A DNA stretch of 64,000 bases from Paludibacteraceae bacterium (GTDB lineage: Bacteria > Bacteroidota > Bacteroidia > Bacteroidales > Paludibacteraceae): the NCBI GenBank assembly GCA_047973025.1, contig JBKEBE010000006.1, positions 5,386 to 69,385 on the forward strand, given 5' to 3'. Made by a program: the position numbers and the translations under genes. Positions 1,435 through 15,758 of the stretch are shown here, one piece after another. The notes under the pieces are model-generated. The model saw only the letters and a list, made by a program, of their open reading frames with translations, had not been told where the DNA came from and did no database searches. How positions within the stretch are numbered: the stretch's first letter is position 1; each line of letters begins with the position of its first letter.

Positions 1435-2067
1435 ATGAAACAGAAAATTTTATTTTTAACAATCGCATTAGCTTCGTTATTTACACCAAAAGCAAATGCC
1501 CAATTTATCGTGAACGACCCGATTAATGTTGCCACCAGCATTGCCAATACGGTAAAAGAAGTGGTTCAGACATCGAAAACGGTAAAAAATACGCTCGACA
1601 ATTTCAAGGAGGTCGAGAAAGTGTATAAGCAGGGAAAGGATTACTACGACAAGCTGCGCAAGGTAAACGACCTGGTAAAAGATGCCCGGAAAGTACAGCA
1701 GACCATCCTGATGGTGGGCGACATTTCCGACTTGTACGTGAACAGCTACAAGCTGATGCTGCAGGACAAGAATTTCTCGTTCGAGGAACTCACGGCAATT
1801 GCTTTCGGATACTCCAAACTTTTGGAAGAGAGCGCCGCCCTGCTCAAAGAACTGAAAGGGATCGTCAATCCTTCCACGCTTTCGTTCAACGACAAGGAGC
1901 GGATGGATTTAATCGACCAGATCTACAAAGAAGTAAGCGAGTACCGCTCATTGGTAAGCTATTACACGAATAAAAACATATCGGTTTCTTACCTGCGTGC
2001 CAAAAAACAGAACGATGCGCAGCGCGTGATTGATCTGTACGGATCGGTGAATGACAGGTATTGGTAA
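1435..2067 (+). CDS. traI: Conjugative transposon protein TraI-like (DUF4141-like), secreted
   Basis: 210 aa with an N-terminal signal peptide ending ANAQ. Position and length match Bacteroides TraI. There is no traH-sized ORF between traG and this gene. Confidence 0.6.
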   Translation: MKQKILFLTIALASLFTPKANAQFIVNDPINVATSIANTVKEVVQTSKTVKNTLDNFKEVEKVYKQGKDYYDKLRKVNDLVKDARKVQQTILMVGDISDLYVNSYKLMLQDKNFSFEELTAIAFGYSKLLEESAALLKELKGIVNPSTLSFNDKERMDLIDQIYKEVSEYRSLVSYYTNKNISVSYLRAKKQNDAQRVIDLYGSVNDRYW

Positions 2068-2072
2068 TTTCA

Positions 2073-2186
2073 GTAAACGAGTAAACTAACAGTAAACAAG
2101 AAAACAGAGTAAACAGAGTAAACGAGAATACGGGTAAACCGCATTAACTTTTACACACTGTCTTGTCCACTTGTTTACCTGTCCAC
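2073..2186 (+). repeat. Array of six direct (A)GTAAAC repeats, one inverted GTTTAC and a TGTCCAC pair in the traI-traJ spacer
   Basis: GTAAAC occurs at 2073, 2081, 2092, 2109, 2118 and 2134. GTTTAC is at 2173-2178. TGTCCAC is at 2164-2170 and 2180-2186. Confidence 0.8.
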
Positions 2187-2202
2187 AAAAAACTAATATT
2201 TT

Positions 2203-3198
2203 ATGGACTTTAACAACTTACATCAGGTGCTCCGTGCACTGTACGAAGAGATGATGCCTCTTTGCGGAAGCATGATAGGCATTGCCAAGGGAATTGCAGG
2301 CACGGGTGCCTTGTTTTACGTCGCCCACCGGGTTTGGCAATCACTTTCAAGGGCTGAAGAGATAGACGTGTATCCGCTCCTGCGCCCGTTTGCCATCGGT
2401 TTCTGCATCCTGTTCTTTTCATCTGCCGTGCTGGGAACGCTAAACGGCGTACTCTCGCCGGTGGTAAAAGGAACCAATTCGATGCTGAAAACGCAGACGC
2501 TCGACATGAACAAACTCCGGGAACAGCGGGACAAGCTCGAACGGGAAGCGATGCTCCGCAATCCCGAAACGGCTTTTTTGGTCAGCAACGAAGAATTCGA
2601 CAAGAGAATCGAAGACATGCAGGGGCTTAACCCCAAGCATTTGGCCACCATAACTTCCATGTATGTGGAACGGGGCATGTACAACCTGAAAAAGACGATG
2701 CAGGACGCATTCAAGTCTTTTTTGGAAATCCTGTTCCAGGCCGCCGCGCTGATAATCGACACCATCCGCACCTTCTACCTGATCGTGCTTTCCATTTTGG
2801 GACCGATAGCGTTTGCCATCGGCATTTACGACGGTTTTCAATCCACCATCACGGGATGGCTCAGCCGGTACATTTCGGTGTATCTGTGGCTTCCCGTTTC
2901 GGATTTGTTCAGCACCATGCTTGCCCGCATACAGACCTTGATGATAGACAAAGAGATAACCGCCCTGCAGAACCCGTCGTATATCCCGGATGGTTCGAGC
3001 GTGGTGTACATCGTGTTTATGCTGATTGGCATCGTGGGTTATTTCGTCGTTCCCACTGTTTCGGGCTGGATCATTCAGGCAGGAGGCATGGGCAACTACG
3101 GCAAAAACCTCAGCCAATCCATTCAGAAAGGCGGAGCAGCAGCAGGCGCCGGAGCAGGCGCTGCCGGGGGAAATATTATGGGAAAATTGAAAAAGTGA
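2203..3198 (+). CDS. traJ: Conjugative transposon membrane protein TraJ (VirB6-like)
   Basis: 331 aa with several hydrophobic spans and a Gly/Ala-rich C-terminus. Position and length match TraJ. Confidence 0.8.
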   Translation: MDFNNLHQVLRALYEEMMPLCGSMIGIAKGIAGTGALFYVAHRVWQSLSRAEEIDVYPLLRPFAIGFCILFFSSAVLGTLNGVLSPVVKGTNSMLKTQTLDMNKLREQRDKLEREAMLRNPETAFLVSNEEFDKRIEDMQGLNPKHLATITSMYVERGMYNLKKTMQDAFKSFLEILFQAAALIIDTIRTFYLIVLSILGPIAFAIGIYDGFQSTITGWLSRYISVYLWLPVSDLFSTMLARIQTLMIDKEITALQNPSYIPDGSSVVYIVFMLIGIVGYFVVPTVSGWIIQAGGMGNYGKNLSQSIQKGGAAAGAGAGAAGGNIMGKLKK

Positions 3199-3205
3199 AA
3201 AAACT

Positions 3206-3231
3206 GCCCCCTAACCCCCTGAAGGGGGAAC
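3206..3231. repeat. Hairpin element copy E2 (arm then hairpin)
   Basis: Sequence is gccccctaa + ccccc-tgaa-ggggg + aac, 8 nt after the traJ stop. Confidence 0.75.
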
Positions 3232-3310
3232 TATTAGGGCAGGTCAAAACTCGTAAAAATATATTTTACAATACTTAAACAAGAAAACAATGAGTAATAA
3301 CACTAAAACA

Positions 3311-3334
3311 CCCCCTAAAGGGGGATGGGGGGCT
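3311..3334. repeat. Hairpin element copy E3 (hairpin then arm)
   Basis: Sequence is ccccc-taaa-ggggg + atggggggct, immediately upstream of the traK ATG. Confidence 0.75.
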
Positions 3335-3338
3335 GATC

Positions 3339-3962
3339 ATGGAATTTAAATCATTAAAAAACATCGAAACATCTTTTAAGCAGATACGGCTGTATGCACT
3401 TGTGTTCGGCATGCTCTGCACGCTGACGGTGGGTTTTGCCCTTTGGAAATCCTACGGTTTCGCCGAAGCGCAGCGCCAAAAAGTGTATGTGCTGGACAGC
3501 GGAAAATCGCTGATCGTTGCCCTTTCGCAGAATGCGGCGCTGAACCGCCCCGTGGAAGCACGAGAACACGTGCGCCGTTTCCACGAACTGTTTTTCACGC
3601 TGTCGCCCGATAAGTCGGCAATCGAAAGCAACATGAAGCGGGCTTTTTTTTTAGCAGACCAGTCGGCATTTAATTACTACAAGGACCTTTCGGAGAAAGG
3701 ATACTACAACCGCATCATCTCGGGAAATATCCAACAGCGGATTGAGATAGACAGCGTGCAGTGCGATTTTGCACAGTACCCGTATGAAGCACGCACCTTT
3801 GCGCGGCAGTACATCGTCCGTTCGAGTAGCATTACCGAACGAAGCCTCATAACATCCTGCCGGCTGATCAATTCCACCCGTTCGGACAACAACCCGCAGG
3901 GATTCGTCATCGAAGATTTCATCGTCAGGGAGAACAGGGATTTACAAACCATTAAAAGGTAA
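3339..3962 (+). CDS. traK: Conjugative transposon protein TraK
   Basis: 207 aa with one N-terminal TM segment. Position and length match TraK. Confidence 0.8.
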   Translation: MEFKSLKNIETSFKQIRLYALVFGMLCTLTVGFALWKSYGFAEAQRQKVYVLDSGKSLIVALSQNAALNRPVEAREHVRRFHELFFTLSPDKSAIESNMKRAFFLADQSAFNYYKDLSEKGYYNRIISGNIQQRIEIDSVQCDFAQYPYEARTFARQYIVRSSSITERSLITSCRLINSTRSDNNPQGFVIEDFIVRENRDLQTIKR

Positions 3963-3967
3963 AAATC

Positions 3968-4237
3968 ATGAAAAAGATATTGGATGAAATAACCCGGAAA
4001 CGGAACGGCTTCAATGAAAAATTGAAAAACCGGCTGGAAAGGATGACGCCCGACGCCCGGATGCGTACCATCCTCATCCTGCTGACTGCGTATGCACTGG
4101 CGACGGTATTTTTCCTCGTTCGGGGGTTTTCCGGGGGAAGCAGGAGCAGGTTTGAAGTTAAACACATTGAACCTGCAGAGCTTGAAAAAAAGACCGGTGG
4201 AAAGCCGGCTCCTAATGATTCGGCATACCGCTATTAA
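3968..4237 (+). CDS. traL: Conjugative transposon protein TraL-like (small, single TM)
   Basis: 89 aa, starting 5 nt after the traK stop, with one TM span (ILILLTAYALATVFFLV). Confidence 0.65.
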   Translation: MKKILDEITRKRNGFNEKLKNRLERMTPDARMRTILILLTAYALATVFFLVRGFSGGSRSRFEVKHIEPAELEKKTGGKPAPNDSAYRY

Positions 4238-4291
4238 CCTGCCTGACGGCAGATAAACAAATTAAAAAAAACAACTAACAATTTTTTAAAA

Positions 4292-5668
4292 ATGGAAAAT
4301 CAAAAAAATGAACTTGAAACCGGAATCTCTAATGAAATGCAGGATGACGGTGAAAATAGAAAAGAGGGGAAAAAGCCGGTTGAAAAAGAGCGGCGCACCC
4401 TTTCTCCCGAAGAAATTCAGAAACGGAAGAAAATGCTGATTTATCCGCTGATGGTACTCGTGTTTATCGGCGCACTGTATTGGATTTTTGCCCCTTCAAA
4501 AGCCGAAAAAGAAAAGCAGGAAACGGGACAGGGGTTAAACCTGGAAATTCCGCAGGTAAGCGGGGGCGATCTGCCGGACGATAAAGAAACCGCCTACAAG
4601 CAGGCGGACATGGAGCAGAAAGAGAGTGAAAGGCAGTCGGCGATCGGTGCGCTGTCCGATTTTTTCGGAGGAACGCAGAAAGCACACAGCCGTCCCGAAG
4701 AGTGGGAATTAGCCGCCGAACCGGATTACAGCAATGCCGGACACAACGAAATCCGCCAATCGGCATCGGCTTACGGTGACATCCGCCGCACGCTCGGAAA
4801 CTTCTACGAAGACAACTCGAAGACGGATGCCCTGCAGATGCAGATTGATGAACTGCAGGCACAGTTAAACGAAAAGAAGAATGCAGAATCGGAAAACGAC
4901 GAACTGCAGAAACAGTTGGAGCTGATGGAAAAATCGTATGAACTGGCATCCAAGTACATGCCCCAATCATCGGGAACGATGGCAGAACCTTTTGGAAATC
5001 CGGCAGGACATTCGACCGAAAGCGCTCCGAAAGCAGTCGGAACGGAGAGCAAAGAACCCGTATTCACCGTGTTGCCCGATGCGAAAAACGTCGTCTCGGC
5101 ACTTTACCGGGATGTACCTAACAGCGTGTTCATCGCCGAGCAGTCGCAGGAACGCAACCGCTATTTTATTTCCGGAACGGATGACTTTGATGATGCTTTC
5201 GACAAAAATACGCTGAAAGTTTCCGTCCACGAAACGGTAACGCTCAAAGACGGCGAAACCGTCCGCCTGCGTCTGTTGGAAACGGCCCGGGTAGCCGGAA
5301 TGCTTATCCCCAAAAACAAAATCCTGACCGCACAGGCAAAAATTCAAGGCAGCCGCCTGTCGCTTTCGGTTACCCACATCGAACAGCAGGGGCGGATTGT
5401 CGCCGTGAGCCTGTCGGCGCACGATTTGGATGGACAGCCGGGCATTCTCATTCCCAATTCGGAAGAGATGAATGCCGTGAAAGAGGTCGTTGCAGGAATG
5501 GGACAATCGGCGGGAACGAGCTTCACGTTCAATTCATCCGCAGGACAGCAGTTAGCGTCTGATGCCGGAAGAGGCGTGATGCAGGGTGCATCGCAGTACC
5601 TGAACAAAAAAATGCGGGAAGTGAAAGTTACGCTCAAAACGGGGCATCTGCTTTATTTAGCCCCCTAA
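4292..5668 (+). CDS. traM: Conjugative transposon protein TraM (VirB10-like position)
   Basis: 458 aa with an N-terminal TM segment, an acidic coiled-coil middle region and a conserved C-terminal domain. Position matches TraM. Confidence 0.8.
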   Translation: MENQKNELETGISNEMQDDGENRKEGKKPVEKERRTLSPEEIQKRKKMLIYPLMVLVFIGALYWIFAPSKAEKEKQETGQGLNLEIPQVSGGDLPDDKETAYKQADMEQKESERQSAIGALSDFFGGTQKAHSRPEEWELAAEPDYSNAGHNEIRQSASAYGDIRRTLGNFYEDNSKTDALQMQIDELQAQLNEKKNAESENDELQKQLELMEKSYELASKYMPQSSGTMAEPFGNPAGHSTESAPKAVGTESKEPVFTVLPDAKNVVSALYRDVPNSVFIAEQSQERNRYFISGTDDFDDAFDKNTLKVSVHETVTLKDGETVRLRLLETARVAGMLIPKNKILTAQAKIQGSRLSLSVTHIEQQGRIVAVSLSAHDLDGQPGILIPNSEEMNAVKEVVAGMGQSAGTSFTFNSSAGQQLASDAGRGVMQGASQYLNKKMREVKVTLKTGHLLYLAP

Positions 5669-5686
5669 ATCCCCCGCAAGGGGGAC
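5659..5686. repeat. Hairpin element copy E4 (arm then hairpin)
   Basis: Sequence is agccccctaaat + ccccc-gcaa-ggggg + ac. The traM stop codon (5666-5668) lies inside the arm. Confidence 0.8.
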
Positions 5687-5736
5687 TTTTAAAACCAAAT
5701 ACATAATCAAATTTTTATTCTAACATAGTCTGAAAA

Positions 5737-5767
5737 AGCCTTCCCTTCGGGAAGGTTTGGATGGGCT
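5737..5767. repeat. Hairpin element copy E5 (hairpin then arm)
   Basis: Sequence is agccttccc-ttcg-ggaagg + tttggatgggct. Confidence 0.8.
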
Positions 5768-5783
5768 TTAAATTCATAACAAT

Positions 5784-6704
5784 ATGAAAATCAAACAATT
5801 TCTTTTAGCAACAATTTTGCTGGCAGGCACATTTTCTGCCAACGCCCAATTCGGAACGGGCGACCTGTATCAAGGAATGAGCCGAAACATCCCCGGCGGG
5901 CGAGTGGTACTGCCTTACGGACTTTCCGTAACGTACGACAAAACCGTCCATCTTATTTTTCCTGCACAAATCCGTTACGTGGATTTGGGAAGTTCCAACA
6001 TCATCGCCGGAAAAGCCGAAGATGCCGACAACGTGCTTCGGGTGAAAGCGTCCGTGCGGGATTTTGAGACAGAAACCAATCTTTCGGTCATCTGCGACGA
6101 CGGCAGTTTCTTTGCCTTCAACGTGAAATACGCCGAAGAACCGGAACGGCTGAACATCGAGATGCAGGATTTTCTCCATTCGGGAGCGGGTAATCTGCCG
6201 ACCAACAAAGCCGATATTTATTTCAAAGAATTGGGCAATCAGTCGCCTGTGTTGGTTAAGCTGATTATGAAAACGATATGGCAAAACGACCGCAGGGAAA
6301 TCAAGCACATCGGCTCGAAAAAGTTCGGCGTACAATTCTTATTGCGAGGCTTATACACGCATAATGGACTTTTTTATTTTCACACGCTTACCAAAAACCA
6401 AAGTCAAATGCCGTTCAATATCGACTTCGTTACCTTCAAAGTAGTGGATAAAAAAGTGGCGAAACGCACCGCCATTCAAGAGCAAATCCTGCAACCGCTC
6501 CGCATCCACAACGACATTGTCCGCATCGGCGGAAACCAATCGAAACGCTCCGTGTTCGCACTCGAACAGTTTACTTTGCCCGATGATAAAGTATTGGAAG
6601 TTACGCTTTTCGAGCAAAACGGCGGACGGCATCAGACTTTCATCGTGGAAAACGAGGATTTAATCCGTGCAAAAAACATTGATAACCTGAAATTGAAATT
6701 TTGA
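5784..6704 (+). CDS. traN: Conjugative transposon protein TraN
   Basis: 306 aa with a signal peptide ending SANAQ. Position and length match TraN. Confidence 0.8.
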   Translation: MKIKQFLLATILLAGTFSANAQFGTGDLYQGMSRNIPGGRVVLPYGLSVTYDKTVHLIFPAQIRYVDLGSSNIIAGKAEDADNVLRVKASVRDFETETNLSVICDDGSFFAFNVKYAEEPERLNIEMQDFLHSGAGNLPTNKADIYFKELGNQSPVLVKLIMKTIWQNDRREIKHIGSKKFGVQFLLRGLYTHNGLFYFHTLTKNQSQMPFNIDFVTFKVVDKKVAKRTAIQEQILQPLRIHNDIVRIGGNQSKRSVFALEQFTLPDDKVLEVTLFEQNGGRHQTFIVENEDLIRAKNIDNLKLKF

Positions 6705-7300
6705 TGAAAAAGACGATGATTTTAATCGTGTGCCTTGTTGCGATAGCGGCAGTCACACACGCCCAACGGTTAATTCCGGGACAGCGGGGATTGCAATTAT
6801 CCTACATTTATCCGATTATTCCCACAAATGATAATCATTTGCAGCCCGCAAAAGCCCTCCCTACGGGAGGGTTTGGGTGGGCTTTGGCAATGACCATCAA
6901 TCACAAGCGAGCCAATCATTGGCTTTTCGGTTTAGAATACGCCAAGAAAAACTTTGCGTATCGAAACACAAAACTTCCTGTCGAAACTTTCGCTTTCGAG
7001 GGCGGATATATGCTCAATCTCTTTTCTGATGCCGGAAAGAACCTTTTGCTCAACACCGGAATTACCGCCGTTTCCGGTTACGAAACCGTTAATCGGGGCG
7101 AAAAACTTCTGCCCGACGGAGCAACTCTTTTGTCAAAAGACAAATTTGTTTACGGCGGAGCGTACCATTTGGCATTGGACGTTTTCGCAACGGACAACTT
7201 GGTGTTTTTCGTAAAAGGAAAGTGCAACGTGCTTTGGGGAAGCGATGTGGAGAGGTTTCGACCGCAGATAAATACAGGAATTAGAATAAGTCTGAACTAG
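6704..7300 (+). CDS. traO: Conjugative transposon protein TraO (outer-membrane beta-barrel-like)
   Basis: The ATG overlaps the traN TGA (TGATG). It has a signal peptide and the conserved PGQRGLQ motif, with alternating beta-strand-like sequence. Hairpin element E6 sits in frame within it. Confidence 0.75.
   Translation: MKKTMILIVCLVAIAAVTHAQRLIPGQRGLQLSYIYPIIPTNDNHLQPAKALPTGGFGWALAMTINHKRANHWLFGLEYAKKNFAYRNTKLPVETFAFEGGYMLNLFSDAGKNLLLNTGITAVSGYETVNRGEKLLPDGATLLSKDKFVYGGAYHLALDVFATDNLVFFVKGKCNVLWGSDVERFRPQINTGIRISLN
6853..6883. repeat. Hairpin element copy E6 (hairpin then arm), inside the traO coding sequence
   Basis: Sequence is agccctccc-tac-gggaggg + tttgggtgggct. It translates in the traO frame as ..KALPTGGFGWAL.. 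Confidence 0.8.
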
Positions 7301-7358
7301 GATTTATGTGATTTTTATGATTAAAAATGATTTTGTAAAACAATAAAAATGACTAAAA

Positions 7359-7808
7359 ATGAAACTAAAAAGTAAAATAATCAATAATTTATGGGTGGTG
7401 GGAGTGCTACTCATTGCCGGGTTTTGTCTATCTGCTTGCGATAACGAGCTGGATGTTCAGCAGGTGTATGAATTTGATATTCGCACGATGCCAGTGCGTA
7501 AAGAAATCCGCCAAAACGAAACCGCTGAAATCCGTTGTTCGCTAATCGAGAAAGGAAGTTTTTCCGATAATCGCTATACCATTCGTTACTTCCAATCAGA
7601 AGGATTTGGCGAACTTCGTTTAGGCAAAAACGGCGAAGTCTTTCTGCCTAATGACCGATATCCGCTTCCGGACAAAGAATTTCGACTGTACTACACTTCC
7701 CGCTCCAACGAAAGCCAGACCTTCGAGGTAGTGGTGGAAGATGGATTTGGAAATCAGAGGAGGTTGGAGTTTGAGTTTAGTGCTCAACGAGAAGAAATTA
7801 GGGAGTAA
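7359..7808 (+). CDS. traQ: Conjugative transposon lipoprotein TraQ (DUF3872-like)
   Basis: 149 aa with a lipobox (LSAC). The motifs TMPV, EIRC, YTIRYFQ and FRLYYTS resemble Bacteroides TraQ. Confidence 0.7.
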   Translation: MKLKSKIINNLWVVGVLLIAGFCLSACDNELDVQQVYEFDIRTMPVRKEIRQNETAEIRCSLIEKGSFSDNRYTIRYFQSEGFGELRLGKNGEVFLPNDRYPLPDKEFRLYYTSRSNESQTFEVVVEDGFGNQRRLEFEFSAQREEIRE

Positions 7809-7849
7809 AATCCCGATTTGTTTCATACTTTAATATTTAATAAATGCAG

Positions 7850-7885
7850 AAAAGCCCTTGCACGTGATGTGCTGGGGCTTTTTGG
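7850..7885 (+). terminator. Stem-loop after traQ, a possible end of the tra operon
   Basis: aaaagccc ... gggctttt with an inner gcac/gtgc pairing, followed by a T-run. Confidence 0.45.
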
Positions 7886-7902
7886 ATGAAATTAACCCAT
7901 TG

Positions 7903-8424
7903 TCAAATTAGAGAGGACCAGATTTTTAATCTTTTTTCTACTTCTCCAACTAACTTTTGATTGTTTCGAAAAAGAAAATTAGAAGCTATTAGTTGATTTA
8001 ATTTAGATATTGCGTCTCTTGGTGATAAAATTCCCGTTTCAACAAATTTATCAAAAATCCAAAACATACCGTGATACTCAATCTCTTTGTTTTTGGCGTA
8101 ATTTCGAAGAGTTTTATCACTGCTTAAAACGCAAGCGTTAATTTTGTTGGCGACGTGTAACACAGATTTATCAGCTTCTGATAAAGACTTTGGGTAATTT
8201 TCAAAGTAAATTTCAACAAAGTCTTGTTCGTGTAAATTATGAATAAAAAGCCTGCCAACGGACTGATAGGCTTGAAGTATTTCTTGTTGTTCCGAATACA
8301 ATTCGTATAAAACTGCAGAAGTAGTATGTATCTCTAATTCAAAATTGAAAAAAGATTTTGTCAAACCTATATCATACAAATCAATGAAAATATTAGCATC
8401 GGTAACGGCAATTTTTACTTTCAT
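7903..8424 (-). CDS. PIN-like (DUF4411-like) putative nuclease, second gene of the HTH-ImmA operon
   Basis: 173 aa. The N-terminal VTDANIFIDL looks like the first acidic motif of a PIN fold. Later acidic motifs are SEADKS and LSSDKTLR. It starts 21 nt after the upstream stop. Assignment is by eye only. Confidence 0.5.
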   Translation of the reverse strand: MKVKIAVTDANIFIDLYDIGLTKSFFNFELEIHTTSAVLYELYSEQQEILQAYQSVGRLFIHNLHEQDFVEIYFENYPKSLSEADKSVLHVANKINACVLSSDKTLRNYAKNKEIEYHGMFWIFDKFVETGILSPRDAISKLNQLIASNFLFRNNQKLVGEVEKRLKIWSSLI

Positions 8425-8445
8425 AGCTTAACACATATTATGAAA

Positions 8446-9510
8446 TTAAAATACCATTTGGTGTTCCTTTCTGAAATCAGCCAAAGATTGATTGTTCAAA
8501 GAAGCTGCTTTAGACATTGAAATTTGGTCTTCAACTAATGCACGGAATAAAAGTTGCTCAAAGCGGTTAGATTCTTCTGCTCCATTATATTCAACAGGTT
8601 CGTCTACTTTCCAATTCATCTGCTTTATTAAGAAAAAGAATTGTTTAGTATAGTGGTCGTTGATAATGCCACAGTCTTTGGCTCTCATAACTACGGCTTG
8701 CATAGAAATACCGTATTGTTTTTTGATATTGCCCAACTCATTTATTGAAAGTTTATTTCTGTGTTCGCCTAACTCTGCTTTAAGAGTTTTTTCAGGTAAC
8801 AACATTGCGCCTGCAAATTGATGACACAAAGTTTCTTTTTGTCTTTCGGTAATATCGCCAAACTTCAAAAGTAAGTGAGCCAATTCATGCAACAAAGTAA
8901 AACGTATTCTATCAGGCTTATTTATCTTGTTAGCGTTATATGCCACAACAGGAATAGTGTCGTTTACACGAGTTTGCAAGCCGTCAAAATCATCATTAAC
9001 TCTTAAATCAACAACTTTAATATTTTTATCCTCCAAGAGTTCAACAATATTGAAAATAGGACCATAACCCAACCCCCATTTTTCTCTTAAAAGTTCTGCT
9101 GCTTTATTTACCTGTTTATACTCAGTTACAATTTCAAAGTCTTTTAAGTGATCTTCAAACTCATTTGGTAAGCCCAAAATTTCTTCTAACTCTAAATACC
9201 GTGATAGTTTTTCCTTAGTGATTTCTTTAATTATTGAAGCCTCTTTTTGTGGCATTTTGCTCAATTTTCGAAACCCTACTTCACCCAACTCCACTTTAGT
9301 ACTTCTGAAAAAATAATCAGGATTTACATTTAAAGCCTTACTTAATAAGTTGATTTTTTCGGTATCAGGAATGACTTCACCTTTCTCGTAACGATGCAAT
9401 GCTTGACGAGATAATTGATTATCCAAGGCATCAGCCAAATCCTGCAATGAAAAACCTTTCATCAAACGGGCTGACTTAAAGCGTTCTGAAAAAATCTCTT
9501 TCATTTCCAT
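8446..9510 (-). CDS. Fusion protein: N-terminal XRE-family HTH plus C-terminal ImmA/IrrE-type zinc metallopeptidase
   Basis: 354 aa. The HTH region is FKSARLMKGFSLQDLADAL...LHRYEKGE. The HEXXH motif is LLHELAHLL. Confidence 0.85.
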   Translation of the reverse strand: MEMKEIFSERFKSARLMKGFSLQDLADALDNQLSRQALHRYEKGEVIPDTEKINLLSKALNVNPDYFFRSTKVELGEVGFRKLSKMPQKEASIIKEITKEKLSRYLELEEILGLPNEFEDHLKDFEIVTEYKQVNKAAELLREKWGLGYGPIFNIVELLEDKNIKVVDLRVNDDFDGLQTRVNDTIPVVAYNANKINKPDRIRFTLLHELAHLLLKFGDITERQKETLCHQFAGAMLLPEKTLKAELGEHRNKLSINELGNIKKQYGISMQAVVMRAKDCGIINDHYTKQFFFLIKQMNWKVDEPVEYNGAEESNRFEQLLFRALVEDQISMSKAASLNNQSLADFRKEHQMVF

Positions 9511-9530
9511 TGTTATTTTGAATTATAATG

Positions 9531-9538
9531 CAAAGATA
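9531..9538 (-). promoter_or_regulatory. Candidate Bacteroidota -7 box for the HTH-ImmA operon
   Basis: Plus-strand caaagata equals TAtcTTTG on the minus strand, about 20 nt upstream of the ATG. The spacing to any -33 TTTG is not ideal. Confidence 0.4.
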
Positions 9539-9735
9539 ATACTTTTTAGTTTACAAACACACAAAAACAATACCACTTTTCACACTATTTTGCTAACTAT
9601 GACAGAATTTTATGTTGACAAGACTGTATTTTACTGACAATTTTACCGAATTCAATCAAAAACTGAAAGTTTACAATACATAGTTGACATATTTACATAA
9701 AAATTTGATTTTGTAACTGAATGGAATAGTATTTG

Positions 9736-9743
9736 TACATTTG
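9736..9743 (+). promoter_or_regulatory. Candidate -7 box (TACATTTG) for the DUF2188-CBASS operon
   Basis: It matches TAnnTTTG, and a TTTG lies ~22 nt upstream. It is ~50 nt upstream of the first ATG (9792). Confidence 0.4.
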
Positions 9744-9749
9744 CAGACG

Positions 9750-9766
9750 GGTGCAAATAGGTGCAA
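9750..9766 (+). promoter_or_regulatory. Direct repeat GGTGCAA-ATA-GGTGCAA, a candidate operator
   Basis: Two exact 7-mers with a 10-bp period lie immediately downstream of the candidate -7 box. Confidence 0.35.
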
Positions 9767-9791
9767 CCATAACTTTTAATATTGTATAACG

Positions 9792-10013
9792 ATGAAGAAA
9801 AATCAACATGTAGTGCCGCACGAGAAAGGTTGGGCGGTAAAAGGCGCAGGCAACGAAAGGAACACAAAAATTGTACCTACACAAAAGGAAGCTATTGACA
9901 TAGCAAGGGAGATTGCCAAAAATCAGCAATCAGAATTAGTAATTCATAACAAAGAAGGAAAAATTAGGGAAAAAGACAGCTTTGGAAATGACCCACGAGA
10001 TATTAAGGGATAG
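9792..10013 (+). CDS. DUF2188-family small protein, first cistron of the CBASS-like operon
   Basis: 73 aa. The pattern HVVPHEKGWAVKGAG...KEAIDIAREIAKNQ..ELVIHNKEGKIREKDSFGNDP matches the DUF2188 consensus as I recall it. Its stop lies 3 nt before the patatin ATG. Confidence 0.7.
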   Translation: MKKNQHVVPHEKGWAVKGAGNERNTKIVPTQKEAIDIAREIAKNQQSELVIHNKEGKIREKDSFGNDPRDIKG

Positions 10014-10016
10014 CAG

Positions 10017-11003
10017 ATGAAGTTTAAAATTTTATCAATAGACGGTGGCGGAATAAAGGGGCTTTACTCCTCTACCATTCTTGAACATTTGGAAAGTAAA
10101 TTTGGTGGTAGTTGTTCCGACTACTTTGATATGATTTGTGGAACTTCAACAGGTGGTTTGATAGCTTTGGCTCTATCACAAAAAATCCCTGCTTCTGAAA
10201 TTTCAAAAATCTACACCAAACACGGAAAGGATATTTTTCCGAAACAAAATAAGTTAGTCGGTTTGCTCCGTCAAACTTTATGGAAAGGAAAATTTAAAGA
10301 CGAAGCATTGAAAAACGTGCTTACTGAAATTTTTGGCGAAAAGACTATTGGGGAAAGTAACAACCTGCTTTGTATCCCTTCCTATTCATTTACTGATGCT
10401 CGTCCGTGGATTTTTAAGTATGACCATAAGGAAGGCAATTTAGACAGGGATAATAAAGCAAGATATGTTGATGTGGCTTTGACGACATCGGCAGCACCTA
10501 CCTATTTGCCTTTGGCAGAAATTGATTTGTATGATTACAAGCAATTTATTGACGGTGGTGTGTGGGCAAACAATCCGTCTTTACTCGGGTTGGTTGAAGC
10601 CCTAACTTATTTTGTTGGCGAAGGAAAACCTTATGACAGTATTCAAATACTTTCTGTAAGTAGTTTGAACAACACTGCAGGAAAGCCAACAGGACTTAAA
10701 CGAAACAGGTCGTTTATACAATGGCGAAATGATTTGTTTGAAACATCTTTGATTGGGCAAAGCCATTTTTCGCATTACGTTCTCTCTCAATTTCACAACC
10801 TAAATTCTATGCCTGTGGAATATATTCGGATTCCTTCCGAAGCAATTTCTGCCGAACAACAACATTTGGTTCAACTTGATGTTGCAACCGACAAGGCTCT
10901 GCACCTAATAAGGGGTAAAGGAAACGACAGGGGAACTTTGGCAAGCAAAGACCCTGAAATTGCAAAATTTTTTCAATCACAAAAAACATATAAAATAAGA
11001 TAA
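10017..11003 (+). CDS. capV: Patatin-like phospholipase, CBASS effector (CapV-like)
   Basis: 328 aa. It has the oxyanion motif DGGGIKG, the nucleophile motif GTSTG and the catalytic Asp motif DGG (FIDGGVWANNP). Confidence 0.85.
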   Translation: MKFKILSIDGGGIKGLYSSTILEHLESKFGGSCSDYFDMICGTSTGGLIALALSQKIPASEISKIYTKHGKDIFPKQNKLVGLLRQTLWKGKFKDEALKNVLTEIFGEKTIGESNNLLCIPSYSFTDARPWIFKYDHKEGNLDRDNKARYVDVALTTSAAPTYLPLAEIDLYDYKQFIDGGVWANNPSLLGLVEALTYFVGEGKPYDSIQILSVSSLNNTAGKPTGLKRNRSFIQWRNDLFETSLIGQSHFSHYVLSQFHNLNSMPVEYIRIPSEAISAEQQHLVQLDVATDKALHLIRGKGNDRGTLASKDPEIAKFFQSQKTYKIR

Positions 11004-11005
11004 TT

Positions 11006-12004
11006 ATGGCAAATTGTAATACACACTTTGAAGAATACAATGGTAAAATCAGATTGACTGACACCCGTAGAAAAAGCCTTATAGGCTCTCGTAATGAATT
11101 GCGAAATAAGGTTAGGAAGTGGTTTAAGGAAAATAAACCTAATGAAACAAAACCAAAGTTTAGCGGACAAGGTTCAATGTCTATAGACACAATCATAAAC
11201 CCAATTCCACGAAGAATAAAAGATGGGAACGAAGAAATAACGGCTCTTTATTATGATGTAGATGATGGTATTTACTTTCAAGGCGATAAGGAGCCAAATG
11301 ATAGACCAACTCCGACTACATACCATAGTTGGATTTATAATGCTGTAAAAGGACATACGGACAAAGACCCTATTGATAAAAATACTTGTATCAGAACTTT
11401 GTTTGCTGACGGTCATAATATAGACCAACCTATTTACTACAAAAAAGGCGATACACCTCAACTTGCTCACAAGGAGAAAGGTTGGATTGATAGCGACCCA
11501 AAAGCATTTATAGATTGGTTTGAAGAAAAGGTAAAAAAAGAGCCTCAACTAAGAAGGTTGGTGCGTTATGGAAAAAGTTGGTGCGACAATCGTGAATTTG
11601 TAAACACAAGTAAGTCAATGCCATGCGGTTTAATCATTACAATACTTTTTGCGGAAAATGCAGTTTATCGTAAAGACCGTGATGATGTAGCTTTGAAAGA
11701 AACACTACTTGAAATTCAGCGAAAACTCAAAATCTCGTTTGAGTGTAAACGTCCAACAACTCCAAAAGGTGAAAATTTGTTGGCAAATTATGGTCATAAG
11801 GATTATTTTATGGATTGTCTTGCCAAGTTCATTGACGATGCCACGAAAGCATTGCAAGAAAAGAATTTCAAAAAGGCAACTGAACTTTGGCGTAAGCATT
11901 TAAGTGACAGGTTTCCGTTGGGTGAAGATAAGGACGATTCCGCAAACGCTTCGGCAGGACTTGGAACTATTATCACGCCTACAACAAAACCTTATGCAGA
12001 ATAA
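11006..12004 (+). CDS. cGAS/DncV-like nucleotidyltransferase (CD-NTase)
   Basis: 332 aa. It has GQGS (the G[S/G] motif), YDVDDGIYF (the hDxD motif), a later Asp in HNIDQPIYY, and the typical DPKAFIDWF and RLVRYGKSW segments. The C-terminus is ..TKPYAE. Confidence 0.8.
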   Translation: MANCNTHFEEYNGKIRLTDTRRKSLIGSRNELRNKVRKWFKENKPNETKPKFSGQGSMSIDTIINPIPRRIKDGNEEITALYYDVDDGIYFQGDKEPNDRPTPTTYHSWIYNAVKGHTDKDPIDKNTCIRTLFADGHNIDQPIYYKKGDTPQLAHKEKGWIDSDPKAFIDWFEEKVKKEPQLRRLVRYGKSWCDNREFVNTSKSMPCGLIITILFAENAVYRKDRDDVALKETLLEIQRKLKISFECKRPTTPKGENLLANYGHKDYFMDCLAKFIDDATKALQEKNFKKATELWRKHLSDRFPLGEDKDDSANASAGLGTIITPTTKPYAE

Positions 12005-12678
12005 TGAAAAATGTGCAATTTGAAAAAGACATATTACTTGTTCCCGATTTCTTTGACAAGTTGAGTATTGTTGAAGAGAACAATGAACGATTTTTAAAAG
12101 GTTCGTTGGACATTATTGACGGAACAGGAAAATTATGGGATACTTATGAAGTGGAAATTAAGGGTAGTGAAAGCTATCCTTATTCTTTCCCAAAACTGTA
12201 CGAAACAAACAATGCCTTTCTGAAAAACGCGGATTGGCATGTTTACGAAGATGATTTTTCTTGTTGTGTAGATGTGCCAATGAGCGAAAAAATCATTTGT
12301 AAAAATGGTTTGAATGTTTCTGACTACATAAAACAATATGCCATACCCTATTTAGCAAATCAAACATACAGAAAACGAGAAGGGTATTATTTATATGGTG
12401 AGTATTCACACGGAATTTTAGGCAGACTTGAATTTTATCAAAGCAGGTTGAAGGCGAAAAATTTAGCTGAACTTATTAAGATGTTTGATTTGATAATAAA
12501 TGACTATAATCCTGACAGAAGGGCAATGTGTCCTTTTTGTTATAAAGAAAAATTTAGAAGGTGTCATCGTGATGCGTTTAGGGAATTACAAGCAATAAAA
12601 GAATATTTAGCATATGATAGATTGATTTTGCTAAAGATTTTAAAGACAAACCCCGATTTTCAATTACCAATTATTTAA
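12004..12678 (+). CDS. Prokaryotic E2-like (UBC-fold) protein with a C-terminal Cys/His cluster
   Basis: 224 aa. The pattern YEVEIKGSESYPYSFPKLYE...WHVYEDDFSCCVDV resembles the E2 layout (YP..P, then H, then catalytic Cys). The C-terminal CPFCYKEKFRRCH is SEC-C-like. The ATG overlaps the CD-NTase stop (TAATG). Confidence 0.6.
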   Translation: MKNVQFEKDILLVPDFFDKLSIVEENNERFLKGSLDIIDGTGKLWDTYEVEIKGSESYPYSFPKLYETNNAFLKNADWHVYEDDFSCCVDVPMSEKIICKNGLNVSDYIKQYAIPYLANQTYRKREGYYLYGEYSHGILGRLEFYQSRLKAKNLAELIKMFDLIINDYNPDRRAMCPFCYKEKFRRCHRDAFRELQAIKEYLAYDRLILLKILKTNPDFQLPII

Positions 12679-12926
12679 GCATTGTTTAATGATTTTTTTT
12701 CGTCCAATGTAATTGTGATTATGATAAAATGTTTATACAGTAGTGATGCTTTTTATCGAAAAATAAATTCCACTCCGTCCCGGCAAATTTCTTTTGCTTC
12801 TTTTTTGTCCGCCTTTTTTAGTCAAAAAAAGAAGTCCCCGAAACTTTTCAGCTCCAAGGACTTCAAGAAAACAGTCAGAAATAAATGAAATAAAAAAGTC
12901 CATTTCCTTTCTCCTTATGGGGAAAG

Positions 12927-12948
12927 TACCCGAAGGGGGATAGGGGCT
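12927..12948. repeat. Hairpin element copy E7 (degenerate; hairpin then arm)
   Basis: Sequence is taccc-gaa-ggg + ggataggggct. The pcfJ stop codon (12947-12949, minus strand) lies in the arm. Confidence 0.5.
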
Positions 12949-14230
12949 ACGCACTCATCCGCTTTCTAATCAAATGTGCATTCCGATTTACGAGTGAAAT
13001 AATTTGGTCGTGCCATTCCGTATTTTGGTTGCAAACGCCACGTGCTTGCACCACTTGAAAGGTCGCTAATGAAACTTCAACGGTCTCAATGCGTTTGCCG
13101 TTAATCTGTGCCGAAAGAATAAGCGTGTCCGTTTTTAGAAAATATGCGTTGGCATACACACAGTGTTTCAATATGTTACCTTCTTCGAAAAACTCGTTTA
13201 CATCCTGCAAAACCCGCACGTGCAACTGTCCGTCCGAAAATTCCAATCCCAAAAACTTCGATTTCAGCTCTTGATACTGCGTTTCGTTTTTCAAAATTTG
13301 TTCCCGCTGTTTCTCTTTTTCCTGCCGTTTCTGCCAAGCCTGTTTTTTGCGCATCAGGCGGTCGTGTTCGGCTCTCAAATCCGCCGGGCAGACAAATTTG
13401 GCGTTCGATAAATCCTTGCCGAAAAACTGCAATAAATCCACATAATCGCACCATATCGACACATCCGAAACGGTGTACTTGTTGCGAATGCAAATGCGGA
13501 TACTTGCCCAATAATCATCCAAATTTTGCGAACGTTTGATGGAAAAATATCTCAACAAATCAATCTGTCCCGATTTCAGCAAAGTTTCCATTCGGCTGTC
13601 AGACAAGATATTTCGGAAAAAGTTTCGGGGCGAAAGTCCGTGAAAATCACCACGAAAACCGTTGCGTTTCACTTCGGGAATAAAGCGTTTGTGCGGATAA
13701 ACGGCTGTGGGCGAAACAAGATGCGCCTGCCGTTCTTGGCGGATTTCGAGGTCGGACGACCAATTCCAAACATCGTAATACAGCACGCTCATACATCGTG
13801 AACGTGCCATTATCACGGACTTTCCGCTCGGCGATATCCAATGTTGCACCACTTCACGGCAGTAAAGTTGCGCCGGATTGCCCACTTGGCAGTTTTTCTC
13901 CAAAAAGAAATACCGCAAAACTTGAAAACCACCGCAAACGGTGTATATTCCGTAATATTCGGCTTGCTTGAACGACTGTTTTCGGCTGTCGATTACTTTC
14001 TCTTTCGTGCCACAATGCGGACACGTACATCCGCAAATCGTTTCGTACAAGGCGTGTCCGCTTTTCCACGAATGTCCGCACTCCAAACACGTCAGCGTGC
14101 CGTTTTTCAGCCGTCGGGCTTGCTGTTTAAGGCAGTTTCTGAATGCCCAATCCTGCTGTTTTTGAGTGATTGGGGCAAGTCGCTTACTTTGTTCGGCGAC
14201 TTCCTTTTGTAGTTTCGTTCTCGGTTTCAT
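12947..14230 (-). CDS. pcfJ: PcfJ-like protein (conserved conjugative-element accessory protein)
   Basis: 427 aa with a Cys-rich N-terminal region (CLECGHSW...CGCTCPHCG). It resembles the PcfJ-like proteins seen in Bacteroides CTns. Confidence 0.65.
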   Translation of the reverse strand: MKPRTKLQKEVAEQSKRLAPITQKQQDWAFRNCLKQQARRLKNGTLTCLECGHSWKSGHALYETICGCTCPHCGTKEKVIDSRKQSFKQAEYYGIYTVCGGFQVLRYFFLEKNCQVGNPAQLYCREVVQHWISPSGKSVIMARSRCMSVLYYDVWNWSSDLEIRQERQAHLVSPTAVYPHKRFIPEVKRNGFRGDFHGLSPRNFFRNILSDSRMETLLKSGQIDLLRYFSIKRSQNLDDYWASIRICIRNKYTVSDVSIWCDYVDLLQFFGKDLSNAKFVCPADLRAEHDRLMRKKQAWQKRQEKEKQREQILKNETQYQELKSKFLGLEFSDGQLHVRVLQDVNEFFEEGNILKHCVYANAYFLKTDTLILSAQINGKRIETVEVSLATFQVVQARGVCNQNTEWHDQIISLVNRNAHLIRKRMSA

Positions 14231-14234
14231 TTCT

Positions 14235-14642
14235 TTAAAAAAGGCTTTTTTGTATGGCGGTTTCGGTCGGTGTGGTCGGGCGTTTGCGCACTTTGGTCAT
14301 ACGCTCGTAAATCTCGTTTTCGGCACGTTTCAAGGCGTTCTGCCGTGCCTGTTCTTTTTCTTCGGACGTGAGGGTAATCATGTGATTTACAATCACATTA
14401 CAGTCTATCGGTTTGCCGATTTCTAAGGCCGGCTCATCCCAATAATGAGTTGCAAGGGAGTAAATTTCGTCATCGCAAAATCCACATATTCCGCTCTGTT
14501 TTACGTAGTTGAGTATGAATGTAATGCAGTCGTTCATATTTTTTTCGGGATTGTTGAACGATACCGCAAAAAGTTCGTCCGTGCAGGCTCTTTCCGCAAG
14601 GTAGGTTTCTATGGTGCGTTTGAAATGTTCGGTAGTTTTCAT
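14235..14642 (-). CDS. pcfK: PcfK-like protein
   Basis: 135 aa starting at the internal ATG (MKTTEHFKRTIETYL..). The longer 265-aa ORF in the track runs through hairpin element E8 and is unlikely to be real. Confidence 0.6.
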   Translation of the reverse strand: MKTTEHFKRTIETYLAERACTDELFAVSFNNPEKNMNDCITFILNYVKQSGICGFCDDEIYSLATHYWDEPALEIGKPIDCNVIVNHMITLTSEEKEQARQNALKRAENEIYERMTKVRKRPTTPTETAIQKSLF

Positions 14643-14657
14643 TTTTCTGTCTGTTTT

Positions 14658-14687
14658 AGCCCCTCCAAACCTCCCCAAGGGGAGGCT
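14658..14687. repeat. Hairpin element copy E8 (arm then hairpin on the plus strand)
   Basis: Sequence is agcccctccaaac + ctcccc-aa-ggggag + gct. On the transcribed minus strand the loop reads CUUG. Confidence 0.8.
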
Positions 14688-14703
14688 TTTAGGGAATTGT
14701 TCT

Positions 14704-15177
14704 TTAATAAAGTTGAATAATCTTGATTGCTTGCTGATGATGATTGAGAATGTCCAAAACGGAAAACTCTGCCGTGCAAAATTCTTCGCCGGAATGTTTT
14801 CCGTAAGCGGTGTAGATAGCCGTACCACCTCTGTAAAGGCGCAAACGGTAGGTGTCCAAAGTGCTTTCGGGAAGTGAAAGTTTGTCTTGTTCGTCTTCGT
14901 CCAACTCCACAAACGTCCAATCTTTCTCGTCCAAAAGTGCGTGAATGTCGGGTTGCTCGTTTTCATCGGTGCGATAAAAATCCACTGCTGTGTCGTAATA
15001 ATTGAGTGAGCAAAAATTGTAATCTTCCGCAAAAGGTTGAACGGACTGCAAACGCTGTTTCATTCGTTCTCTCCACTCTGTGGTGCAATGGATTAGGGCA
15101 AATTGGCACTCGTCCCAATCGCTGTTGGTGTAGGCTTTTACCAATACAAAATCTGTTATTGTTGATGTTGCTTTCAT
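14704..15177 (-). CDS. Hypothetical conserved CTn protein, acidic
   Basis: 157-aa ORF in the minus-strand operon. I recognise no motif. Confidence 0.5.
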   Translation of the reverse strand: MKATSTITDFVLVKAYTNSDWDECQFALIHCTTEWRERMKQRLQSVQPFAEDYNFCSLNYYDTAVDFYRTDENEQPDIHALLDEKDWTFVELDEDEQDKLSLPESTLDTYRLRLYRGGTAIYTAYGKHSGEEFCTAEFSVLDILNHHQQAIKIIQLY

Positions 15178-15209
15178 ATTTTTTTATCGTTTTTATAGTG
15201 AAGTTTTTA

Positions 15210-15437
15210 TTAAAAAAATGATGCCAAAAGCAATCCGATTACGGCAAGAATAACTGCCCATTTCAGCACCTTAAAAACGATGTTAAGCGTTGTGCGGATG
15301 ATGAATTTCAGTACGGTAAAAGCCACAAAAATCATCACAAGCGTTATCGTTTCCGGCGTGGCGATAACCGAAACGGCGTAAACCGTTCCGATTATCAAAA
15401 TTAAGCCGATTATCAGCCGTAAAGGGATTGTTTTCAT
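15210..15437 (-). CDS. Small membrane protein (about 3 TM segments)
   Basis: 75 aa from an internal ATG (MKTIPLRLIIGLILIIG..), almost entirely hydrophobic. It starts 5 nt after the upstream stop. Confidence 0.5.
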   Translation of the reverse strand: MKTIPLRLIIGLILIIGTVYAVSVIATPETITLVMIFVAFTVLKFIIRTTLNIVFKVLKWAVILAVIGLLLASFF

Positions 15438-15441
15438 CGGG

Positions 15442-15744
15442 TTATCGGTTTGAAAGTGAGATAAAATTTCGCTCCAAAACTCGTTCAAAAGCGGTGTCGC
15501 TGTCGTATTCGTCCTGCGTGATGTCGATACTTCGGATAGGTCTGTCGTTGAATTTCCACTCGATAAAATTGTGTAAGGAGAAAATTTTAACATACCCGTT
15601 TCCTTTCAGATAGGCGACCACAAAAGCGTGTCTGTGTCCGATTTGGCATATCAGATGTTCGGTCTGTTCGCTCGGCTTATTGCCTTTCACAACTGCCATT
15701 AGTTGTATTTTTACTTTCACTGTATTTCTTGTTTTAGTGTCCAT
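15442..15744 (-). CDS. Hypothetical protein
   Basis: 100-aa ORF in the same operon, with no recognisable motif. Confidence 0.4.
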   Translation of the reverse strand: MDTKTRNTVKVKIQLMAVVKGNKPSEQTEHLICQIGHRHAFVVAYLKGNGYVKIFSLHNFIEWKFNDRPIRSIDITQDEYDSDTAFERVLERNFISLSNR

Positions 15745-15758
15745 TTTGAGTTGATTTT

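Follow-up and report, generated by a model that had tools for sequence, protein, structure and literature searches.

Within a 64,000-nucleotide (nt) stretch of a Paludibacteraceae genome (contig JBKEBE010000006.1; the whole stretch is referred to here as the window), we analyzed a pair of minus-strand genes at positions 7903 to 9510 and the DNA upstream of them. The first gene of the pair encodes a 354-amino-acid (aa) protein that joins an XRE-type helix-turn-helix (HTH) domain to an M78 peptidase domain of the ImmA/IrrE kind, and the second encodes a 173-aa PIN-like protein. Open reading frame (ORF) calls on the window reproduced both genes as a first-pass annotation of the sequence had described them, with the shorter ORF following 21 nt (8425-8445) after the longer one. 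That annotation had also placed the pair divergent from an operon of the cyclic oligonucleotide-based antiphage signaling system (CBASS); Pfam and PADLOC identified the operon, 281 nt away, as DUF2188-patatin-CD-NTase-E2. The elements of the locus are as follows.

7903-8424, minus strand: PIN-like gene (173 aa), a predicted VapC-like ribonuclease (RNase) toxin of the COG2405/DUF3368 type
8446-9510, minus strand: HTH-M78 fusion gene (354 aa), a single ORF with its start at 9510 and a second in-frame Met at 9504
8680-9030, minus strand: Peptidase_M78 (ImmA/IrrE) domain, residues 161-277 (Pfam, E 1e-13, above the curated cut-off)
8824-8889, minus strand: zinc site, H208-E209-L-A-H212 (8875-8889) with E226 and C229 (8824-8835)
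9268-9273, minus strand: F80-R81, predicted autocleavage site in the HTH-peptidase linker
9310-9477, minus strand: XRE-type HTH domain, residues 12-67 (Pfam HTH_3, E 3e-12, above the curated cut-off)
9511-9791, unstranded: control region shared by the divergent operons, from alignment across loci with different neighbors
9792-12678, plus strand: type II-short CBASS operon, the likely regulated cargo, beginning 281 nt from the fusion start codon
9792-10013, plus strand: DUF2188 gene (73 aa; Pfam; PADLOC candidate PDC-S16, 9e-37), first in the CBASS operon and 4 nt before the patatin gene
10017-11003, plus strand: patatin-like phospholipase effector (PADLOC phospholipase effector, 4e-110)
11006-12004, plus strand: CD-NTase (PADLOC cyclase, 2e-120)
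12004-12678, plus strand: E2-like protein (PADLOC, 2e-58)

The interval 7903-9791 is best explained as a portable cassette of ~1.9 kb in three parts: a control region, a repressor-peptidase, and a cotranscribed PIN RNase. From the comparative analysis described below, we consider it probable, though well short of certain, that one self-cleaving repressor-antitoxin controls both the PIN toxin and the neighboring defense operon.

The predicted repressor-peptidase and its PIN partner

Pfam placed an N-terminal HTH and an ImmA/IrrE domain in a single chain, in agreement with the first-pass annotation; the HELAH motif, which had been assigned to the C terminus, is present at residues 208-212 but lies mid-protein and is not strictly C-terminal. 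The AlphaFold2 (AF2) model of the fusion (mean predicted local distance difference test score [pLDDT] 88.7; predicted template modeling score 0.86) comprises, in order, the XRE HTH, a lower-confidence linker, a long helix (residues 88-112), an alpha/beta peptidase, and an all-helical C-terminal part. Its best Foldseek match was Thauera CapP (7t5t), followed by IrrE (3dti) and PprI, aligned over ~170 residues. A PDB sequence search with the 354-aa protein returned only HTH proteins (C.Csp231I and P22 C2) and weak IrrE matches, and did not find VapB52. Among PADLOC models, both halves of the CapH/CapP pair were recognized, capH at 6e-12 (residues 2-99 against profile positions 2-96 of 103) and capP at 2.5e-16 (residues 133-280), and 14 RosmerTA RmrA models matched nearly full length (1e-29 to 6.8e-46), the best covering residues 3-319 against profile positions 7-329 of 380. 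NCBIfam added a sub-threshold match to the spr1629 repressor/antitoxin family. The protein is best explained as a one-chain CapH-CapP-like repressor-peptidase, composed of an XRE HTH, an [F/Y]R linker, an M78 zinc peptidase, and a helical C-terminal domain.

The residues on which such an activity would depend are conserved. H208, E209, H212, E226, and C229 are invariant in 76 of 76 homologs (52 to 94% identity), and E226 and C229 presumably act as zinc ligands. In the same homologs, linker position 80 is F or Y in all 76, R81 is kept in 75, and K82 in 74; the FRK/YRK motif and the zinc-site residues are retained even in homologs from Runella (44% identity) and Sulfuricurvum (38% identity). Escherichia coli CapH is cut between F82 and R83 by CapP activated by single-stranded DNA (ssDNA) (bioRxiv 10.64898/2026.05.16.725639), and in Mycobacterium tuberculosis VapB52 the presumed self-cleavage junction contains an FR motif, F75-R76 (PMC13273310). 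On these grounds F80|R81 is the likely autocleavage site, an equivalence read from profile coordinates and not from a residue-level alignment. In the HTH, the predicted recognition-helix residues R35, Q36, A37, H39, R40, Y41, and E42 are invariant in 39 homologs, which fits a conserved operator, for which more than one element of the control region is a candidate. A total of 1,943 homologs of the fusion were detected, those listed being 70 to 100% identical and spread over many Bacteroidota lineages.

For the 173-aa protein, the identification came mainly from structure. An AF2 model built on 44 homologs (pLDDT 90.3) was compared with the PDB by using Foldseek, and the top matches were all PIN domains: Nob1 (2lcq; 5e-5), VapC4 (5h4g), and 1v96, with 1y82, Rv0301 (3h87), the SMG6 PIN domain, and HARP RNase P as further matches. 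D9 (after strand 1), E41, D85, D103 (after strand 4), and D125 are invariant in the 44 homologs. The acidic motifs on which the first-pass annotation had based its PIN-like call therefore fall within a confidently modeled PIN fold, and the failure to match such a fold in a structure or profile search, which it had regarded as evidence against its proposal, was not what Foldseek returned. Sequence profiles were less informative. NCBIfam returned PRK12496-series "hypothetical protein" models below threshold (best, 3e-5), PADLOC returned candidate families PDC-S70 (1.6e-6) and PDC-M07A (0.045), and a PDB sequence search with the PIN profile gave weak matches only, including a FADD match (0.18) that we regard as spurious. 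A precomputed database label, PF11848/DUF3368, is attached to the protein and to all 120 of its listed homologs; PF11848 was not recovered by hmmscan at either E <= 0.1 or E <= 0.01. Neither DUF4411, the family originally suggested, nor any curated Pfam PIN family matched significantly in profile scans. Because of the structure match and the precomputed label, we assign the protein, as modeled, to the PIN-like proteins of the COG2405/DUF3368 kind. There were 680 detectable homologs, those listed again 70 to 100% identical and from many Bacteroidota lineages.

To place the pair in other genomes, we used a one-genome-per-species scan, which found relatives in 264 species; the best 80 were analyzed and, with the window, make up 81 loci. 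These were gathered via the PIN gene, so that the sample consists of PIN-bearing loci only. ORFs were called in all loci, weighted by cross-locus conservation, and clustered, and cluster representatives were annotated with PADLOC and Pfam. In 79 of 81 loci the gene immediately preceding the PIN gene is the HTH-M78 gene; one of the other two ends at a contig end and the second has a disrupted gene. The intergenic gap is between -4 and 41 nt in 77 of the 79 paired loci, with an overlap of 1 or 4 nt in 24, and the identities of the two proteins to the window copies covary (r = 0.91). Among the loci analyzed, the two genes form an obligate pair. A distant cassette is found on the finished conjugative plasmid pRUNSL02 of Runella slithyformis (NC_015704.1, 4735-7510), where the regulator is 44% and the PIN protein 32% identical to the window copies, the two genes overlap, and a GGDEF-domain gene follows the PIN gene.

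This pairing bears on whether the PIN protein is a toxin at all. The fusion could be purely a transcriptional switch of the CapH/CapP type and the PIN protein a nontoxic accessory, such as an RNase that processes the operon mRNA or a cosensor. The PIN protein is unusually well conserved (70 to 88% identity across many Bacteroidota families), is never found without the regulator, and matches no RmrT toxin model, and unfused CapH/CapP pairs regulate CBASS without any PIN protein. We nevertheless regard an accessory role as improbable. The full acidic PIN active site is invariant, an antitoxin gene that overlaps or is closely followed by its toxin gene is the usual order in type II toxin-antitoxin (TA) pairs, and the same architecture in M. 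tuberculosis comprises a toxic tRNA-cleaving PIN protein neutralized by the fusion protein. Moreover, COG2405/DUF3368 genes paired with HTH-DUF955 genes have been predicted to encode toxins (PMC5499597).

The control region and the divergent operons

Upstream sequence sufficed for neighbor counts in 72 loci. A divergent gene block was present in 58 of them, consisting of CBASS operons in 25, type II Bub operons (Multiubiquitin BubA, DUF6791+ThiF BubBD, and DUF6527 BubE) in 9, and other genes in 24; no divergent gene was called in the remaining 14. Thus, 34 of the 72 loci have a CBASS or Bub operon facing the cassette head-to-head. The 25 CBASS operons represent four unrelated cyclase clusters: cyclase with E1E2, JAB, and NucC; cyclase and E2 with patatin or 2TM; cyclase with HORMA, TRIP13, and 2TM; and cyclase and E2 with SAVED-HNH or 2TM. 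The 24 loci with other genes include further cyclases and genes for ThsB-like TIR, PycTM, pAgo, SoFic, and AbiH proteins, together with some housekeeping genes.

The orientation is strict. Each of the 29 CD-NTase genes detected in the loci is encoded upstream of the cassette on the opposite strand, as is each of the 10 BubBD-like genes, and a search of 547 kb of upstream and 631 kb of downstream sequence found no cyclase or BubBD-like gene that was downstream or co-oriented. Measured from the regulator start, the first divergent gene is a median of 258 nt away, and no further regulator gene is interposed before the CBASS or Bub operons. Dozens of species show this head-to-head layout, which is not a product of chance. 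It extends to a metagenomic relative (85% PIN identity) that is divergent from a SMODS/SEC-C/DUF6602 operon and to the Runella plasmid cassette, which is divergent from an operon annotated [quoted passage not shown] We also considered a hotspot, in which a conserved gene flanks a variable insertion site; this was ruled out, as the genes downstream of the PIN gene vary between loci and DNA homology stops at the PIN 3' end.

Several loci showed variations on this layout. The slot between regulator and cyclase in related loci is occupied by DUF2188, DUF1508, an LRAT/NlpC-like protein, or small unknown proteins (clusters c66 and c67). Two loci (L088 and L082) carry two different CD-NTase genes in one divergent operon, for example, cyclase-E2-2TM-cyclase. 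In some copies of the metagenomic loci L013/L018, a DDE_5 transposase gene separates the control region from the CBASS cyclase gene, and the cyclase is truncated (305 versus 340 aa), a natural uncoupling of the regulator from the operon. An association unlike the head-to-head one was seen on plasmid pSULKU03 of the campylobacterotan Sulfuricurvum kujiense (NC_014756.1, 4956-6510), where a 38%-identical regulator and its PIN gene lie between hsdS and hsdR inside a type I restriction-modification (R-M) operon.

Alignments of upstream sequence across loci showed that ~220 to 290 nt of control region is conserved together with the cassette. In blastn comparisons of the window with other loci, homology begins ~12 to 15 nt inside the PIN 3' end (~7916-7918) and ends within the control region, at 9557, at ~9695-9735, or at ~9765-9789; it continues past the control region only where the first divergent gene is likewise DUF2188. 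The neighboring operons and the genes beyond the PIN gene are unrelated between loci. Promoters were sought with the motif TAnnTTTG, a consensus scan for sigma-70 promoters and terminators being uninformative for Bacteroidota sequence. The elements recognized in the window are listed below.

9531-9538, minus strand: Bacteroidetes-type -7 box TATCTTTG, candidate HTH-M78/PIN promoter; TAnnTTTG match in strongly conserved columns
9548-9557, minus strand: proximal TTTGTAAACT element, candidate operator, just upstream of the -7 box
9614-9689, minus strand: central and distal TTGTnAAC copies, GTTGACA at 9614-9620 and 9683-9689 and AGTTTACAA at 9668-9676
9709-9717, plus strand: TTTTGTAAC, an inverted motif copy overlapping the candidate -33 TTTG of the divergent promoter
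9736-9743, plus strand: TACATTTG, candidate -7 box for the DUF2188-CBASS operon; the sole plus-strand TAnnTTTG match in the intergenic region
9750-9766, plus strand: direct repeat GGTGCAA-ATA-GGTGCAA beside the divergent operon start

Most loci carry the motif TTGT[ACT]AAC about 50 nt before the start codon, and many keep a conserved GTTACAAAA near -205 to -215. TGTAAAC occurs in 48 of 72 upstream regions versus 5.7 in shuffles, and TGTCAAC occurs in 47 of 72 versus 2.7. TTGTnAAC motifs are thus enriched 8- to 17-fold and are positionally fixed, with clusters at about -50 and at -165 to -215. The TACATTTG box is a more tentative assignment, since it lies inside a window-specific insertion. The GGTGCAA repeat is conserved in many loci whose first genes differ (DUF2188, DUF1508, or a CBASS-II cyclase) and may serve as a second operator, as a site for some other factor, or as a 5' untranslated region element. 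Taken together, the region is best explained as ~280 nt of control DNA with two back-to-back candidate promoters and repeated TTGTnAAC elements.

These data allow a second alternative to be weighed, in which the pair is an autonomous TA or defense module of the RosmerTA/VapBC52 kind that regulates only itself, the CBASS operon is controlled separately, and the two are neighbors through the clustering of defense genes. The strong full-length RmrA matches are as expected for such a module, VapBC52 and RosmerTA work as two-gene units, and the Sulfuricurvum pair, inside its R-M operon, is divergent from nothing. The 14 loci that lack a divergent gene, the housekeeping neighbors in some other loci, and the frequent end of homology at 9557, right past the proximal promoter, also accord with self-regulation. 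Random clustering, however, is not expected to place 29 of 29 cyclase genes and 10 of 10 BubBD-like genes upstream and divergent with none downstream. Nor does autonomy predict the median spacing of 258 nt or control-region elements whose conservation reaches as far as the start codons of first genes that are unrelated, and no other regulator gene intervenes. We therefore consider an exclusively autonomous module unlikely, although it is the most credible of the alternatives.

Proposed dual control and its relation to known systems

Two bodies of work describe systems resembling this cassette, and each accounts for part of it. The closest counterpart on the TA side is VapBC52 (Rv2515c/Rv2514c) of M. 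tuberculosis, in which HEXXH-dependent self-cleavage of VapB52, triggered by ssDNA, frees the toxin (Singh et al., NAR 2026, PMC13273310). VapC52 is neutralized through the VapB52 N-terminal domain, and tRNA cleavage and phage protection have been reported (PMC13273310). The likeness, drawn from the published description and not from sequence alignment with Rv2515c/Rv2514c, covers gene order (fusion first, PIN second), a PIN-domain toxin with an N-terminal Asp, and an antitoxin with an XRE N-terminal domain, an aromatic-Arg linker motif, an IrrE/CapP-like HEXXH peptidase, and an extra C-terminal domain. The two differ in that VapB52 has a cysteine-switch loop, with C229 nine residues past HEXXH, whereas the invariant C229 of the window protein lies three residues past E226, in the ligand helix. 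VapBC52 also belongs to a different phylum and is described as a stand-alone TA system that does not control a neighboring operon.

RosmerTA systems (RmrT/RmrA) are TA pairs with antiphage activity (Millman et al. 2022; Ernits et al. 2023, PMC10440598), and Ernits et al. noted that the ImmA/Rosmer antitoxin node has PIN-like partners. As in the window, the antitoxin is an HTH-ImmA/M78 protein, and RmrA models match the fusion; the toxins are variable. RosmerTA differs in having no RmrT model that matches the window PIN protein and in being treated as self-contained defense and not as a regulator of another operon. An earlier bioinformatic study predicted three-component TA systems of HTH, DUF955 protease, and PIN-like protein, proposed self-cleavage, and described a fused HTH-DUF955 protein upstream of a COG2405 PIN protein in Geobacillus (Matelska et al. 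2017, PMC5499597). This was a TA prediction only and made no link to CBASS or Bub regulation.

On the transcriptional side, CapH+CapP pairs are known from divergent positions upstream of CBASS, Bub, DISARM, and DUF2188 operons, the DUF2188 cases having been noted by Lau et al. (2022, bioRxiv 10.1101/2022.04.27.489752), and occur at 31% of Bub operons (Chambers et al.). Repression by CapH/CapP, and cleavage induced by ssDNA or DNA damage, have experimental precedent. Fusions are a reported minority variant: Lau et al. counted 15 CBASS systems with a CapH-CapP fusion and drew a single DISARM system in which a fusion is accompanied by a vapC-like gene; the CBASS-linked fusions inspected from that list belong to actinobacterial type II-short systems with a phospholipase effector (bioRxiv 10.1101/2022.04.27.489752). 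The cassette shares the upstream and divergent position, the range of partners (CBASS types I to III, Bub/6E, and DUF2188 operons), an F|R site ~80 residues into an HTH repressor, an M78 peptidase whose best match is CapP 7T5T, and matches to both capH and capP profiles within its single chain. It departs from CapH/CapP in being one polypeptide, in having no GAF domain, and in its obligate PIN partner gene. The suggestion of the first-pass annotation that this is a one-protein CapH/CapP-like regulator accordingly finds support in the XRE HTH, the M78 HEXXH motif with its Glu, the predicted F|R site, and the divergent position, whereas the GAF domain and the two-gene layout of CapH/CapP are absent. 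ImmR/ImmA (ICEBs1 and phage phi105) and DdrO/IrrE (Deinococcus) are alike in that a DNA damage-activated M78 peptidase cleaves an XRE repressor and divergent genes are derepressed; these are two-protein systems for mobile-element induction or DNA repair and have no toxin partner. Since most CapH/CapP features are present without the GAF domain and two-gene layout, and RmrA is present without RmrT, the cassette appears to work like both families while being a plain member of neither. The autonomous toxin module and the CapH/CapP-like regulator, which the annotation had posed as alternatives, both find support here, the former in the RmrA match and VapB52-like gene order and the latter in the capH and capP matches and the divergent CBASS and Bub operons, and are favored jointly.

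A scheme that joins the two, with its steps taken from these homologs, is as follows. In the unstressed cell, the fusion would bind the repeated sites, repress its own operon and the divergent DUF2188-patatin-CD-NTase-E2 CBASS operon, and keep the PIN protein inactive, as VapB52 does with its toxin. Phage infection or DNA damage would activate the peptidase, the likely signal being ssDNA, as in CapP, IrrE, and VapB52. The peptidase would then cut its own chain at F80|R81 and detach the HTH; with one polypeptide in place of two, cleavage would occur in cis or between protomers. This single event would derepress CBASS and free the PIN toxin, which would probably cleave tRNA.

Several points weigh against dual control. 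DNA binding, cleavage, toxicity, and neutralization are all deduced from homologs. The C-terminal GAF domain is absent, with no GAF match in Pfam and an all-helical AF2 model after residue 256; this domain forms half of the ssDNA groove of CapP and IrrE, and its loss makes the activating signal uncertain. For the PIN protein, no Pfam match rose above threshold (best, the NYN domain RNase_Zc3h12a, E 0.024), and no RmrT profile in PADLOC matched it at E <= 0.1, a weak negative given the heterogeneity of RmrT families. The candidate -33/-7 spacings of 16 and 22 nt differ from the canonical 19 to 21 nt, and the promoter assignments are for this reason candidates only. In many loci homology to the window ends at 9557, and some divergent neighbors are housekeeping genes. 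Finally, 14 of 72 loci have no divergent gene while several of these keep the distal motif, which indicates that the pair can stand alone and that the distal sites may serve autoregulation only.

It is conceivable that the role of the cassette is broader still, and we put forward tentatively, as somewhat less probable than dual control at this locus, that a TA pair has been co-opted into a universal portable licensing cassette in which one self-cleaving protein is sensor, defense-operon repressor, and antitoxin of a PIN RNase. If so, its partners would be abortive-infection operons of the CBASS I/II/III, Bub, TIR, Pycsar-like, and pAgo kinds, and one proteolytic event would fire a fast RNase response while transcriptionally arming a slower signaling system. 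The toxin would, moreover, guard the regulator against loss or phage-encoded inactivation.

How toxic abortive-infection systems such as CBASS stay silent and then switch on is an active question, for which the known answers are CapH/CapP, CapW, and CapK/CapS. Dual control, if correct, would add to these a one-protein regulator that carries its own effector and would join two separate literatures, that on RosmerTA/VapBC52 TA defense and that on CapH/CapP transcriptional control. Each half is already known; the new part is the genomic context. Full-text literature searches found no account of fusion, PIN gene, and control region as a unit swapped between defense operons, and, when directed at earlier descriptions of a fusion and PIN pair as a CBASS regulator, they turned up only a figure-legend line on DISARM in Lau et al., unanalyzed there. 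Small (~1.9 kb), strongly conserved, and associated with at least eight kinds of partner operon, the cassette is a convenient handle for asking whether TA modules double as regulators of defense islands. Annotation would also gain, as these loci are now labeled "XRE family regulator + hypothetical/PIN protein" or would be called incomplete RosmerTA.

The carrier element and flanking genes

The cassette lies near one end of a CTnDOT-like conjugative transposon, whose last ~19 kb occupy positions 1-19027 of the window. The surrounding features are the following.

6701-7300: TraO, in the tra region
7359-7808: TraQ, the last Tra gene before the cassette, convergent with the PIN gene
7850-7883, unstranded: GC-rich hairpin AAAGCCC...GGGCTTT, a candidate terminator between the PIN stop codon and the convergent traQ, found by sequence inspection
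12947-14230, minus strand: PcfJ
17413-18642, minus strand: tyrosine integrase, abutting tRNA-Gly
18954-19027, minus strand: tRNA-Gly(GCC), the likely integration site of the element

The hairpin at 7850-7883 was not among the calls of the consensus terminator scan. The cassette and CBASS block (7903-12678) stands out as low-GC cargo, with 33 to 39% GC versus 43 to 49% in the tra region.

This setting raises a third alternative, namely, that the fusion is an ImmR/ImmA-like immunity switch of the carrier, controlling excision and transfer genes and not defense genes. ImmR/ImmA pairs do control the induction of integrative and conjugative elements and prophages, and the locus is enclosed by Tra genes (to 7808), PcfJ, the integrase, and tRNA-Gly. 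In other genomes, however, what is linked to the cassette is CBASS, Bub, and other defense operons and not tra or integrase genes; the window copy converges on traQ, with the hairpin between them, and its low-GC composition is that of cargo. We judge this alternative very improbable and retain the interpretation that the cassette controls its own PIN gene and the CBASS operon.

A PIN homolog was absent from 50,697 phage records, which gives no sign of a phage-borne module. The same arrangement with an identical PIN protein is found on at least 10 metagenome contigs. Beyond the E2 gene is a 68-aa ORF (12682-12888), and the CBASS operon is separated from the convergent pcfJ by a strong minus-strand hairpin (12864-12831) of 15 bp that has a T-run. 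The chromosomal flank past the tRNA gene encodes a CotH kinase-like protein (19831-21789, minus strand) and a DUF4172-Fic protein (25777-26874, plus strand), both unrelated to the cassette.

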